Assembly: GCF_964355755.1 (NCBI RefSeq)
Contig: NC_092670.1
Coordinates: 50,001-114,000, forward strand
DNA from: Antedon mediterranea
Taxonomy: Eukaryota > Animalia > Echinodermata
DNA: 64,000 nucleotides
Direction of reading: 5' to 3'
Both the position numbers and the translations under genes were made by a program. The notes below the pieces were generated by a model. It did not search any database and was not told where the DNA came from. It saw only the letters and a program-made list of their open reading frames with translations. Each line of letters starts with the position of its first letter. The first letter of the stretch is position 1. Shown piece by piece: positions 13,001 through 64,000 of the stretch.

Positions 13001-16000
13001 TATATACAGTACATATTATAATATTATACCACTTTTTAATCAACTAATCAAAACTGGATTTATGTGCATCAATATTAAAGTAGAGGGCAATTCCCCCTTT
13101 TCCCCACAGGACGTGCTGACCGTTCGTGGGCAACCCACATTGTTTTTTTTGTACAACATAATTTTTTTATAATGTTGTCTGGCATTATCATCGTACATTT
13201 TAAATGGTTACCAAACTGACAAGCACTCGCTTCTTTTGGTATACTATTAAATATTGTAATGTACAATTTGTGAATAAATGTGTACATGAATTTATTTAAG
13301 CTGCTGATCATATCATTGAACAGGTGAAGTTTAAATTGTTTAGTTTGTTTGTTGCATTGTAGTTTTACAGATTCTTAAGGAAACCCAACAACAGCACGGG
13401 TTGCGTCATGGTGATTACCAACGATACAGGTATGTAGTGTGTACACTTTTTGTATGTTCACATTTTACTGTAGATGTAAGTGTGTATTTACTGTACTAAC
13501 CAACTTTTCATACTTTTTTTTATAGAGGGTACTGTTCAAGACGATTGCGTAGAATGCGAAAATCTCTTAAATTTCTTCAAGGAAAGAGAAATAAGTTCAT
13601 CAAACGTGAAATTACTGAAGAAATAGTTACAGATGTTCGGTAATTTCTTTTTTTTTTCAATATTTGACTCCCAGTAATGAGATTTAAAATAAATCAACAT
13701 AATAATTTTCAATGTTTATGCAGCTGCTACTGTAGAAGCTACGATTTTTGTCCTAAAACAGTAACCAAATGCTACAGAAGACCTAATAACTTTTCTCTAA
13801 ACACATAATATTGATTGTATAAAACAACAGTTAAAACATATATATTTTTGTATGTGTGCCTTAGGTTTCTCTATTTACCACTTATTCATTCGGAACGAGC
13901 ATGGGGACATGCAATGCAACTGAAACAGGAAGCCAACACTGAACCAAGGAAACGATTTCATCTGACTGCTAGGCTATGTAAAGCTGTTAAGTATGCTGAG
14001 GAGCTAGAACTACTGTCACGTAGTGCAAAATGTGATGCCAGATCAAAGCTAGAAGCTCAAGTAAGTAAACAAATTAAACTATTGTTTATAGTGTTATTCT
14101 AAAGTCTACATATCCAAACCTGTATATTAACAACCATAGCAAATGCGTCCCACTATGCAGTACCATTTGTAAATTTATTCTGAATAACACGTAGGTTCTT
14201 GTTTTTTACTGTATGTTTTATTATTTTAAATGCTTGTTTGTAGGCATACCATGCCTGGATGCGAGGGACATTACTTTTTGAAAGAGAAAAATGGCAGGAA
14301 TCAATAGAGGCTTTTACTACAGCTAAGTAAGTTTATTTATATCCTGATCACTTACAGTTACACATCTTCCAGTTTATCTCAAATTTATTGTTAGTATTGT
14401 TTTCAATAGTTGTGAAAGGAAGGTCACCAGTTATGATTAGCCAATTGAGTCATCAAGCCCTAAAATAACAATTCTATCAAGATTGTTACTTTTGTGCATA
14501 CTGCAGTATGTTATAGATAAATTCTAAAAATAAAAGTTTTTACTTAATATTCAGTGTTCTCCCCAGGCCTTTTTAGCATCACTTTACCGTATCGTGATGC
14601 TTGAGCTCAATCCTGAGGAGAACACTGAATATTCATAATTTATTTCTGCAAATTTTTAGGACTATATATGAGAAACTAGCAGAAGCATTAAATGAAGAAC
14701 AACGGGCAATTTATTTGCAACGAGTGGAAGAAATAGCACCAAACATCCGATACTGTGCATACAACATTGGAGATGAGACTGCTATTAATGACCTTATGCA
14801 AATGAGGGTCAAATCTGGAGGTGAAATGTCTTCTAATCTTGATGTAAGTACAGGTCAGGTAGATAGAAATAATCAAAATCAAATGACATTACTTTGAAGG
14901 CAGCAAGATAGTTCACTCACAATGTGAAAAATCTTGTACCAGTGTCAAATATTAAGACCAATTTTATGCTTCATTGAAATGATTTCTTTTGTAGATCCTA
15001 CTTGCTCAAACAAGAGAAAAGCAGGCTGCAACTTTAAGTGAGGTTACTTGGCGAGGCAGGACTGTTCCTGTAAAATCTGAGCAGATTCGAGGATTTTTCT
15101 TAAGCGTACAAGAAACTGACAAAGAAGTTACTGCCGCCCCTGATGTAGAGAGCAAGATCTCTGTGTATGAGAGTCTACTCATGGGATGTAAAGATGCTCT
15201 TCAAATACTTAGGGATGAACTAAAAGCAGATGGAGTAAGTCAATATTATCAATATAGGATGTAAAGTTGGTCTTCAAATACTTAGGGATGAACTAAAAGT
15301 AGATGGAATAAGTCAATATTATCAATATAGGATGTAAAGATGGTCTTCAAATACTTAGGGATGAACTAAAAGTAGATAGAGTAAGTCAATATTATCAATA
15401 TAGGATGTAAAGTTGGTCTTCAAATACTTGGGGATGAACTCAAAGTAGATGGAATAAGTCAATATTATCAATATAGGATGTAAAGTTGGTCTTCAAATAC
15501 TTAGGGATGAACTAAAAGCAGATGGAATAAGTCAATATTATCAATATAGGATGTAAAGATGGTCTTCAAATACTTAGGGATGAACTAAAAGTAGATGGAA
15601 TAAGTCAATATTATCAATATAGGATGTAAAGATGGTCTTCAAATACTTAGGAATGAACTAAAGGTAGATGGAATAAGTCAATATTATCAATATAGGATGT
15701 AAAGATAGTCTTCAAATACTTAGGAATGAACTAAAGGTAGATAGAGTAAATCAATATTATCAATATAGTATGTAAGGATGAACTTCAGTATGTATTTACC
15801 TTGTAACCATTTGTTTTCTATTAGAATGCTAAGCAGCGAACTCAAAGAGCAGAGAGCCAGGTATCAGGAGTACAATACCTCTACACATATGTCACATATA
15901 TACGACTCACAAAAACCATTGAGCGCAACATGCTATTAGCAGAGTCTCTTAAAGAAAACTTGGTTGGCAGTCAAACATTTACAGAGAATCGTAAAGTCAC

Positions 16001-17449
16001 TAAGCCTCAAGACTTGATAAGGATCTATGACATCATCTTGCAGGTAATGTTTATGAACTATCGGTTAGTGTCAGGCTTTCAAAAGTATAACATATTCCTC
16101 ATTCAATCAATGCAAAACATTATGAAACAGTAATTTTTTATTCAATTAATCTGCTTCTTGAATCAAGGGCAGTCAAACAGTTGCCGCTCTTATTTTATAG
16201 ATAGGTTAGTTTTCACGTTAAACCAACCAAAGTATACGTGTAGGTGTGTTGTTATGTATTCTATTATGAACTGTGTTCATTTACAGTTTATAAATTAAGA
16301 TATATAAATATTTTCTTTGTACATTCATTTGTTAGAGTCTTGGTGAGTTACCATTGTTACCAGGTCTAGAAAACGATGAAGATATTCAACGAGAAGTAGA
16401 GGCTAAGACTTTAAAGTCTAAAGCATTTAGGTAAGTGAGTTAGGATAAAACAATTGTCATCACCACCCTTGAAGAAATGAGAAATTTCACTGCCATTTCA
16501 AATTAATACTAGTATCCATTGCAATTAGTCTCATACTTAGCTTACTTAGTGGTCAAGGAGGCCTTTAAGCTGGTTTTTGATAAAAGCATGCACCTAGAAA
16601 CACCTGCTTGAGATTTTAGGCATCCTAATATGAAAAATGGTAACGTGTAATTTATTTCCAGATGTTTCTATCTTGCACGATCATACGCTTCTATAAAGAA
16701 ATGGCGCGAGACATCTGCTCTTTATGAACAAGTGCTGACTTATATAAGTGGTGCTCTAGAGTTGTTTAAGAAAATTAGAACCAAGCCAACAAAGGTGAGA
16801 CAACGTTGTATGGTTTATAATCTGGACTTATTTATCATTCTCAGTTTTCATAGTTGATTTTGAGCATAGATTTGTTTCAATACATTTATTTCAATTTAAT
16901 ATATCTCTTTTAGACTGATTTAAAGGAACTGCAAGAACTACTGAATACTGTTAATGGACTCAAGTATTCTGCACATGCTTCTTCAATTTTAGGTAATTTC
17001 ATAAAATCATATGTTCATTTGTTTTGCCTTCTAATTACACAAATAGTTAGTCAGTAGCCACACAACAAAAGGTATTAAAGAGGTTCAATAGTCATTCCAA
17101 TATCATATTTTATTGGTTCATTTTTTGTTCAATCAATCATTCATTTTTGTGTCTATTTCTAGATACTGAGGCACCAATAGCTGGTATAACAAACCTAGAA
17201 ATCTCAGACAATCGCCCATTGATAGAGCGATTAGAAAAGTACCAAGAAGTTGAAAGTGTATCCTCAAAAAAGCCAAACCTGGTCACATTTCCACCGGATT
17301 TTAAACCCACTCCGCAAAAGCCTGTCTTCTTTGACATTGCTCTTAACCATGTTGATTTCCCATCTCTGGAAGAAATGCAAGAACAAAAGAAGGCAGGCGC
17401 TAGCATTGGAGGATTTTTAAGAGGATGGTGGGGAGGTGGAAAGAAATAG
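10048..17449 (+). CDS. SRP68: Signal recognition particle subunit SRP68 (spliced, 12 coding exons)
   Basis: Exons: 10048-10111, 13363-13429, 13526-13639, 13865-14060, 14244-14326, 14660-14843, 14995-15234, 15825-16043, 16336-16430, 16662-16794, 16914-16992, 17163-17449, all GT-AG. Motifs [67 protein letters not shown]..GWWG. Confidence 0.96.
10502..11478. mobile_element. Non-autonomous Mutator-like element in SRP68 intron 1
   Basis: Long (~240 bp) TIRs GGTCAGTCTAATTACC.../...GGTAATTAGACTGACC with internal AAACAACCG repeats. 9-bp TSD AATAAATCA (10493-10501, 11479-11487). Confidence 0.88.
11510..12972. mobile_element. Non-autonomous Mutator-like element in SRP68 intron 1
   Basis: TIRs CGCCGTG..GTGGTTAGGATTCCGGCACCGGAACTCAACTG / CAGTTGAGTTCCGGTGCCGGAATCCTAACCACGGCG. 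9-bp TSD TATAATATT (11501-11509, 12973-12981). Confidence 0.88.
14552..14627. mobile_element. Tiny TIR element or MITE remnant in an SRP68 intron
   Basis: CAGTGTTCTCC...GGAGAACACTG inverted ends, flanked on both sides by AATATT. Confidence 0.5.
15184..15785 (+). repeat. 73-bp tandem array (~8 copies) made of the SRP68 exon-7 3' end plus its splice donor
   Basis: First unit GGATGTAAAGATGCTCTTCAAATACTTAGGGATGAACTAAAAGCAGATGGA|GTAAGTCAATATTATCAATATA overlaps the coding exon. Later units are intronic. Confidence 0.93.
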
Positions 17450-63100: not shown

Positions 63101-64000
63101 TAAACATTCAGTCGTAATGGACCATGCCGTAGAACACCGGTCACTCAAATACTAGGTATGAAGTAAATATTCCATATTATTCAATGACACACTAAACATT
63201 CAGTCGTAATGGACCATGCCGTAGAACACCGGTCACTCAAATACTAGGTATGAAGTAAATATTCCATATTATTCAATGACACACTAAACATTCAGTCGTA
63301 ATGGACCATGCCGTAGAACACCGGTCACTCAAATACTAGTTATGAAGTAAATATGCCATATTATTAATAACACACTAAACATTCAGTCGTAATGGACCAT
63401 GCCGTAGAACACCGGTCACTCAAATACTAGGTATGAAGTAAATATGCCATATTATTCAATAACACACTAAACATTCAGTCGTAATGGACCATGCCGTAGA
63501 ACACCGGTCACTCAAATACTAGGTATGAAGTAAATATTCCATATTATTCAATGACACACTAAACATTCAGTCGTAATGGACCATGCCGTAGAACACCGGT
63601 CACTCAAATACTAGGTATGAAGTAAATATTCCATATTATTCAATGACACACTAAACATTCAGTCGTAATGGACGATGCTGTAGAACACTGGTCACTCAAA
63701 TACTAGGTATGAAGTAAATATGCCATATTATTCAATAACACACTAAACATTCAGTCGTAATGGACCATGCCGTAGAACACCGGTCACTCAAATACTAGTT
63801 ATGAAGTAAATATGCCATATTATTAATAACACACTAAACATTCAGTCGTAATGGACCATGCCGTAGAACACCGGTCACTCAAATACTAGTTATGAAGTAA
63901 ATATGCCATATTATTCAATAACACACTAAACATTCAGTCGTAATGGACCATGCCGTAGAACACCGGTCACTCAAATACTAGTTATGAAGTAAATATGCCA
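57056..64000 (+). repeat. 91/92-bp tandem array (at least 75 copies, runs off the window) of the SUZ12 exon-11 3' end plus splice donor
   Basis: Unit CATTCAGTCGTAATGGACCATGCCGTAGAACACCGGTCACTCAAATACTAG(T/G)TATGAA|GTAAATATGCCATATTATTCAATAACACACTAAA. The first copy encodes [18 protein letters not shown]. Confidence 0.96.

Follow-up and report, generated by a model that had tools for sequence, protein, structure and literature searches.

The DNA considered here is a stretch of 64,000 bases from the crinoid feather star Antedon mediterranea (the window, to which all counts refer), which contains an SRP68-like gene, a UQCRC2 gene, and a SUZ12-like gene. Five tandem arrays in these genes overlap a functional boundary, namely four splice junctions and one stop codon. 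Searches with single translated open reading frames (ORFs) identified the window proteins as annotated A. mediterranea proteins: P0001 (SUZ12-like, 641 amino acids, aa) and P0121 (SRP68-like isoform X2, 578 aa) display 100% identity to the window ORF queries, and P0129 (cytochrome b-c1 subunit 2-like, 459 aa) displays 97% over an ORF query that includes intron ends. An exon map was constructed, independently of an initial annotation of this DNA, by threading P0001, P0121, and P0129 onto the window, which reproduced each protein exactly with GT..AG at all 31 junctions and placed the genes as follows.

10048-17446, plus strand: SRP68 gene, 12 exons (P0121 threading)
30123-39303, plus strand: UQCRC2 gene, 11 exons, then TAG (P0129 threading)
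44682-57113, plus strand: SUZ12 gene, exons 1-11, continuing past the window end (P0001 threading)

RNA-type junctions came from spliced contigs of run X5, which belongs to a different study of the organism in the window and was treated as RNA-like because of the GT..AG joint. In UQCRC2, position 38283 is joined to 39220 (GT..AG), and in SUZ12 the exon-11 donor is placed at 57113|57114 (GAA|GTAAAT), 8 bases downstream of a variable AG|GT/TT site. The translation of SUZ12 exon 11 matches human SUZ12 chains (E = 5.6e-16).

Arrays were detected with Tandem Repeats Finder, which returned 67 rows for the window and recovered all five boundary arrays where the initial annotation had placed them. These arrays and the exons that they touch are listed below, with lengths in nucleotides (nt) and repeat units in base pairs (bp).

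14995..15234, plus strand: SRP68 exon 7, 240 nt, donor GGA|GTAAGT at 15234|15235 (P0121 threading)
15184..15787, plus strand: 73-bp array over the SRP68 exon-7 donor, 8.3 copies, 94% matches (Tandem Repeats Finder)
39220..39306, plus strand: UQCRC2 last coding exon, stop codon TAG at 39304-39306 (P0129 threading and X5 contig)
39280..39466, plus strand: 38-bp array over the UQCRC2 stop codon, 4.9 copies, 98% matches (Tandem Repeats Finder)
46339..46407, plus strand: SUZ12 exon 4, 69 nt, donor CAA|GTAAGT (P0001 threading)
46406..50492, plus strand: 135-bp array over the SUZ12 exon-4 donor, 30.1 copies, 97% matches (Tandem Repeats Finder)
52875..53107, plus strand: SUZ12 exon 10, donor ATT|GTAAGT (P0001 threading)
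53211..57004, plus strand: 63-bp array over the SUZ12 exon-11 acceptor, 60.1 copies, 96% matches (Tandem Repeats Finder)
56956..57113, plus strand: SUZ12 exon 11, 158 nt (P0001 threading, with the X5 contig for the donor)
57056..64000, plus strand: 92-bp array over the SUZ12 exon-11 donor, at least 75.8 copies, 97% matches (Tandem Repeats Finder)

Each unit is assembled from the edge on which it sits. The 73-bp unit comprises the final 51 nt of SRP68 exon 7 and 22 intron nt, with the donor GTAAGT, while the 38-bp unit comprises the final 8 codons of UQCRC2, TAG, and 11 nt of the 3′ untranslated region (UTR), in which the extra copies lie. The 135-bp array starts within SUZ12 exon 4, of which it takes in the final 2 nt only, and it includes the donor; its unit amounts in essence to the donor and the initial 127 intron nt, and each unit opens with the donor-like AA|GTAAGT. 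Two further arrays flank SUZ12 exon 11. The 63-bp unit joins 20 intron nt, which include the acceptor (TTTTCTTATAG), to the initial 43 nt of the exon; the exon-10 donor has to pair with the last of the 60 acceptors in this array. The 92-bp unit consists of the final 58 nt of exon 11, the donor GAA|GTAAAT, and 34 intron nt, and the array continues past the window end, making its copy number a lower bound. Only 51 nt of exon 11 (57005-57055) are free of both arrays.

The exon numbers of the initial annotation (SRP68 exon 7, SUZ12 exons 4 and 11) agree with the independent threading, and its central description of five unrelated arrays lying over functional boundaries holds up on the Tandem Repeats Finder output, the exact exon map, and the absence of cross hits among the five units. 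It had further remarked that all five expand away from the coding sequence and leave the frame intact. This is correct as an observation; as a special feature it does not stand, since the geometry of a duplication across a single boundary forces it. Because such a duplication leaves one copy joined to the exon, the additional copies fall on the intron or UTR side and the frame is retained.

As arrays, the five lie far beyond chance, and their overlap with exon edges does not. For this comparison, each array was collapsed to one unit, giving the pre-expansion gene structure, and units were then placed at random in genes. Over 12 null variants, the five observed boundary hits compare with 2.6-3.7 expected (P = 0.09-0.29). 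Genic arrays with a period of at least 10 (n = 20) gave 3.1-3.7 expected hits (P = 0.18-0.29), and those with a period of at least 30 (n = 10) gave 2.65-3.1 (P = 0.09-0.16). Six additional variants returned P = 0.13-0.27; these used the whole window, genes minus their transposon-laden first introns, or a requirement for at least 5 nt on both sides of the edge, which removes the 135-bp array from the hits. Approximate exon edges of an FKBP-type isomerase gene (described below) enter only in the whole-window null. Individually, the five boundary arrays had a probability of 0.10-0.52 of spanning an edge, and edge-spanning by units of 60-135 nt is frequent because the collapsed genes are compact and their introns short. 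The excess of boundary hits is thus mild and not significant.

The window is also rich in arrays that lie elsewhere. Merged arrays with a period of at least 4 cover 31,941 of the 64,000 bases (49.9%), and the following show no overlap with a boundary of a recognized gene.

1657..6122, unstranded: 58-bp array, 77 copies, no recognized gene
19378..29640, unstranded: two 106-bp arrays, 35.5 and 27.7 copies, in inverted orientation, no recognized gene
38324..39172, plus strand: 120-bp array, 7 copies, inside the last UQCRC2 intron, no boundary overlap
45592..46058, plus strand: 105-bp and 74-bp arrays, within SUZ12 intron 2, clear of any boundary

Other arrays outside recognized genes have units of 101 bp (5 copies), 97 bp (4.5 copies), and 91 bp (5.1 copies). 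The 120-bp array starts 40 nt past the donor and ends 47 nt ahead of the acceptor of its intron, and a 32-bp array of 13.3 copies is likewise intronic and away from exon edges. Arrays cluster in general, with 10 neighbor gaps below 150 nt against 4.57 expected (P = 0.006); when foldback-associated arrays are left out, 5 close gaps compare with 2.02 expected (P = 0.04).

These data bear on the proposal that exon edges are true mutational hotspots, where duplications are seeded by events coupled to transcription or splicing (R-loops, stalled forks, or polymerases that pause at splice sites). In its favor are the five boundary hits against approximately three expected, the start of the 135-bp array 2 nt from a donor, and the presence of an array at either edge of SUZ12 exon 11 (P = 0.06 if arrays are placed independently). 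Yet the excess failed to reach significance in any of the 12 null variants, arrays of equal size occur outside recognized genes, and intronic arrays exist that touch no edge (120 bp, 32 bp, and 105/74 bp), one of which is lineage-specific. Breakpoint offsets from the splice sites vary as well: the donor-side units take in 51, 2, and 58 exon bases, and the acceptor-side unit takes in 20 intron bases. Because arrays cluster generally, the flanking of exon 11 on both sides is less special, and this tendency accounts for it without splice sites. A hotspot at exon edges is accordingly considered unlikely. We regard as similarly improbable a broader version in which amplification in the Antedon lineage is biased to exon edges, gene-derived satellites are the main driver of rapid intron inflation, and SUZ12 exon 11 is its extreme product. 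The rule suggested by the initial annotation, that arrays nucleate at exon edges through such coupled targeting, is not supported by this one window: no significant excess, equally large arrays outside recognized genes, and varied offsets were found. The enrichment check that it had recommended, run within one window on collapsed coordinates, gave no significant excess; within the limits of a single window, this is the result that it had said would refute its idea. Its other suggestion, that local amplification is genome-wide and the tolerated outcomes survive, fits the array content of 49.9%, the short collapsed introns, and the single copies present in a relative.

That relative, organism B, provides the evidence on age. 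A 1322-nt contig covers 56936-57135 with 3 differences. On its left side, it continues into the unique intron that precedes the 63-bp array in the window, and on its right side into sequence other than a further 92-bp copy. As read from this contig, organism B has one copy each of the 63-bp and 92-bp units; with single copies there, both arrays would have arisen in the window's lineage, recently, and would have inflated the introns. A second contig from organism B (831 nt, run X6) has approximately 101 nt in place of the 461 nt at 45595-46055 that hold the 105-bp and 74-bp arrays, and therefore edge-free intronic arrays are equally lineage-specific. Non-coding pieces of organism B differ from the window by roughly 3-9%, and the array units are 94-98% alike.

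Collapsing the arrays to a single unit shows how far individual introns have been lengthened.

SRP68 intron 7: 590 nt now, 59 nt collapsed
SUZ12 intron 4: 4316 nt now, 364 nt collapsed
SUZ12 intron 10: 3848 nt now, approximately 117 nt collapsed
UQCRC2 intron 10: 936 nt now, 207 nt collapsed

Overall, the collapsed introns measure 59, 117, 207, 283, and 364 nt. The idea that gene-derived arrays are a route to intron inflation, also put forward in the initial annotation, is borne out by the difference between collapsed and present lengths and by the single-copy exon-11 units of organism B.

How the arrays grew can be followed best in the 92-bp array, in which two 33-unit blocks, each 3021 nt long, share 99.93% identity, compared with approximately 97.1% out of register. 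Unless they reflect an assembly error, these blocks point to growth by large unequal exchange. Self-similarity peaks had also nominated a half-array block duplication in the 63-bp and 58-bp arrays, and this candidate was rejected when a gapped comparison gave no excess identity (95.9% versus 96.2% and 97.5% versus 97.9%, respectively). Among the three arrays compared, block duplication is confined to the 92-bp array.

The 3021-nt blocks differ at 2 positions only and could be an assembler's mistake, and copy numbers are those of the assembly; both facts lend something to the view that the arrays, or their sizes, are assembly artefacts. This view is nonetheless very unlikely to be correct. The units differ mutually by 2-6% in a patterned way, X5 contigs cross unit-to-unit junctions of both the 63-bp and 92-bp arrays, and run X10 holds a 68-nt contig over 1.8 units of the 38-bp array. 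Run X10, which is labeled organism C, contains short contigs 100% identical to the 38-bp (39280-39347) and 32-bp (37869-37930) arrays of the window together with diverged transcripts (7 differences in 52 nt of SUZ12), and its content seems mixed.

Taken together, these observations make it likely that the five edge-containing arrays originated through ordinary tandem duplication and growth in array-rich DNA, with the overlap of edges approximating what chance and short ancestral introns would give. The founding step would be a tandem duplication primed by short direct repeats. The 63-bp array is flanked by a 6-nt direct repeat (ATTTTG), the edges of the 73-bp unit match at 11 of 13 positions between exon and intron, those of the 135-bp unit show a donor-like match at 13 of 15, and the founding repeat of the 92-bp unit is probably CAT; the intronic 120-bp and 32-bp arrays also have direct repeats of 3-9 nt at their edges. 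From these repeats, we infer slippage or template switching as the founding event. Unequal exchange or slippage would then enlarge the arrays. Selection would presumably remove exon-internal and whole-exon duplications and tolerate those across one edge; after any tandem duplication, the remainder of the exon stays attached to an intact copy. The net effect would be intron inflation in SUZ12 introns 10 and 4 and in SRP68 intron 7.

Several points weigh against this account. Five hits exceed every expectation obtained (2.6-3.7), and the 10-33 arrays considered may leave room for up to an approximately two-fold enrichment. The left edge of the 135-bp array lies no more than 2 nt from a donor, two arrays flank the same exon, and boundary arrays have more copies than the others (median 30.1 versus 5.1), a difference that is not significant (P = 0.18). 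In the null, placement within genes was uniform and unit lengths were fixed at their observed values. For organism B, the single-copy reading covers the 63-bp and 92-bp units and the 105/74-bp arrays and derives from short-read contigs, which could in principle collapse repeats. At the 135-bp array, coverage from organism B extends to approximately 46751 and its contig to 46425, and no conclusion is drawn from it; at the 38-bp array, two X6 pieces of similar depth seem to stop near 39315 and resume near 39464, which would fit a single copy in organism B but is not counted as evidence. Finally, the identification of the last acceptor of the 63-bp array as the site used would follow from the annotated protein and from the stop codon present in each decoy unit.

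Amplification of exon edges has filled the introns with decoy splice sites, which were scored using a small matrix derived from the window's own 32 donors and 31 acceptors. The 92-bp array contains 76 identical donor 9-mers (GAAGTAAAT), the authentic one included, and 51 further GT sites. At 57106-57108, the authentic copy and organism B have GTT (Val), whereas 51 of the 76 array copies have GGT, which places an additional GT donor 8 nt ahead of the authentic donor position; at the homologues of 57106-57108, this pattern of variants recurs every 33 units. In the 63-bp array, 60 acceptors score at least as high as the weakest real acceptor, 59 of them decoys, and 42 of the 60 are identical to the real 17-mer (again counting the authentic site). 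SUZ12 intron 4 holds 84 strong decoy donors, and 74 copies of TAAGTAAGT occur in this intron, compared with the authentic donor CAAGTAAGT. The 73-bp array has kept GT at the donor position in two of its seven decoy copies and lost it in five.

In all four splice cases, read-through or use of a decoy leads to a stop within 21 codons or fewer. Given this early stop, decoy-spliced transcripts would be unproductive, with degradation as their probable fate. Threading of the annotated proteins agrees exactly with the authentic splice copies, and these proteins are the basis on which the authentic sites at the SRP68 exon-7 donor, the SUZ12 exon-4 donor, and the exon-11 acceptor are taken to be used. 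The spliced X5 contig fixes the position of the exon-11 donor, and short-read contigs of this kind do not distinguish the array copy.

Such a supply of decoys invites the suggestion that the arrays are kept for a function, either by tuning productive SUZ12 and SRP68 mRNA through unproductive splicing and decay or by acting as stepping stones for the removal of long introns. The decoys are mostly intact (75 extra real donor 9-mers, 59 acceptors, and 84 intron-4 donors), and the early stop after any decoy use is what a decay-coupled switch requires. Youth alone, however, predicts intact decoys in units that are 94-98% alike, and the loss of GT from five of seven decoys in the 73-bp array runs against such maintenance. 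The exon-11 arrays are absent from organism B and hence not conserved. Moreover, decoys are silent or nearly so in the published cases considered (PMC3087553, PMC3902484, PMC1557585), and no decoy RNA joint was seen, in data hardly able to show one. We therefore judge a retained function to be decidedly improbable.

The initial annotation knew of no description of such arrays at this density; the belief that they are undescribed is contradicted by the literature. Tandem repeats spanning intron-exon boundaries are known from amphioxus as "mirages", for which Canestro et al. 2002 is reportedly the founding paper. Mirages have been described in Adh3, the globin genes BflGb6 and BflGb9, troponin C, and PGBD5; they occur at either exon edge (5′ or 3′), are of unstable length, and reportedly do not disturb normal splicing; many units retain AG or GT signals, and a link to intron evolution has been discussed (PMC3087553, PMC3902484). 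The Antedon arrays resemble mirages, whose units measure from tens to approximately 160 bp, in their head-to-tail minisatellite units (73, 135, 63, and 92 bp; 8.3 to at least 75.8 copies; 94-97% matches), and four of the five units span an exon-intron boundary with its splice signal, the 135-bp unit by 2 exon bases only. The 38-bp array differs in spanning a stop codon and falls outside the strict definition. The Antedon arrays are also far longer, with 30, 60, and at least 76 units compared with the 3-6 given for BflGb6; three lie in one gene, two of these flank one exon, and the host is a crinoid echinoderm. As regards length, the difference observed here is one between species, in that organism B has the 63-bp and the 92-bp unit in single copy.

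A second precedent comes from human minisatellites in which the first monomer lies over an exon-intron boundary. Examples include F7 IVS7 (37 bp, 5-9 repeats), 6-16 (25 pseudo-sites), CBS IVS13 (15-20), LAMIN B2/LMNB2 (10-15 repeats of 100 bp), and PDGF (16-18 repeats of 81 bp), and splicing in those genes uses the donor furthest upstream or the first two to three sites (PMC1557585). The Antedon 73-bp, 135-bp, and 92-bp arrays correspond to the F7 IVS7 type as described there, with an authentic donor followed by repeated pseudo-donors. Identity of the later donors is shared by the 92-bp array, with its identical 9-mers, and not by the 73-bp array, in which GT persists in two of seven decoys. 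The human cases in that source are all donor-side, in contrast to the acceptor-side 63-bp array. A preference for the most upstream site is inapplicable to the latter array, whose authentic acceptor comes last among 60.

A model of intron gain by tandem duplication is said to have been developed by Rogers 1989, Zhuo et al. 2007, and Gao and Lynch 2009. Human genes located in segmental duplications are also reshaped by internal tandem repeats that lie at exon-intron boundaries (PMC2812944). As in those repeats and in intron gain by tandem duplication, so far as both are described, repeats over exon edges in Antedon change intron structure, and duplicated signals are raw material for introns or exons. 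The difference is that Antedon shows inflated existing introns with unchanged coding sequence and no new intron or exon. The genome of another feather star is reported to contain 66% repeats (PMC13079724). In the one paper collection searched, neither mirage-type repeats in crinoids or other echinoderms nor a genome-wide test of exon-edge enrichment was reported. The view that the phenomenon is new thus gives way to amphioxus mirages and human boundary minisatellites already in print (PMC3087553, PMC3902484, PMC1557585, PMC2812944). The Antedon case is a known phenomenon that is unusually large, with 60 and at least 76 units derived from the two halves of one exon.

The remainder of the window, with a G+C content of 28-37%, contains two further coding features and several mobile or repetitive elements. 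Pfam matches of note were obtained in 5 of the 68 ORFs scanned, all on the FKBP/EF-hand gene and a reverse transcriptase, and these ORFs revealed no further gene.

~40103-41860, minus strand: FKBP-type isomerase gene, four exons, EF-hands, C-terminal HDEL
42243-43646, plus strand: reverse-transcriptase ORF, 468 aa, RVT_1 domain (E = 2.5e-38)
~44056-44240, upstream of the SUZ12 start: very high-copy short element with many rearranged joints

The inner exon edges of the FKBP gene are ambiguous (64 frame-compatible solutions), and one of its introns carries a 20-bp repeat of 2.3 copies. The reverse-transcriptase ORF, located between the FKBP gene and SUZ12, is presumably a non-LTR (long terminal repeat) retroelement, and organisms A, B, and D contain related copies in abundance. 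The short element at ~44056-44240 reaches a summed contig depth of approximately 1.2 million in X6 and approximately 320,000 in X5 and is present in all four organisms compared.

The region at 19378-29640 forms a palindrome- or foldback-like structure of approximately 10 kb with no Pfam hit. Its 106-bp satellite arrays are mutually reverse-complementary (94-95% over approximately 3 kb), and its core displays inverted 15-mer arrays (24229-24494 versus 25861-26113) together with a 22-bp array (25391-25719). Inverted short-unit arrays are also found in UQCRC2 intron 1 (30285-30461 and 32131-32306, 16-mers, 92.7% identity) and in SRP68 intron 1 (10503-10627 and 11350-11477, 10-mers, 89% identity); these pairs in long first introns look like the arms of foldback-type mobile elements. 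An element of approximately 440 nt occurs at 8105-8548 and 19014-19452 in copies that are 97.7% identical and abuts satellites in both cases, the 101-bp and 97-bp arrays following the first copy and the 106-bp array the second, which suggests that its tail seeds arrays.

No new rule is established by this locus. Gene predictors and readers should be prepared for arrays of this kind in repeat-rich genomes of invertebrates, and any appearance that exon edges are targeted needs to be judged against the collapsed, pre-expansion gene structure. If a bias toward exon edges were true after all, SUZ12 exon 11, preceded by 59 decoy acceptors and followed by at least 75 identical decoy donors, would be a test bed for the choice made by the spliceosome among perfect copies. 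What the window does offer is a clean, dated example of short introns lengthening through amplification of a gene's own exon edge, from approximately 117 to 3848 nt in one case and to at least 6.9 kb in another. These two introns grew after the divergence from organism B, which shows 3 differences over the 200 bases that cover exon 11 and its borders. With 51 unique bases left between two arrays built from its own halves, SUZ12 exon 11 offers a natural experiment in how splice sites, and acceptors in particular, are chosen; for acceptors, the upstream-donor rule gives no answer.

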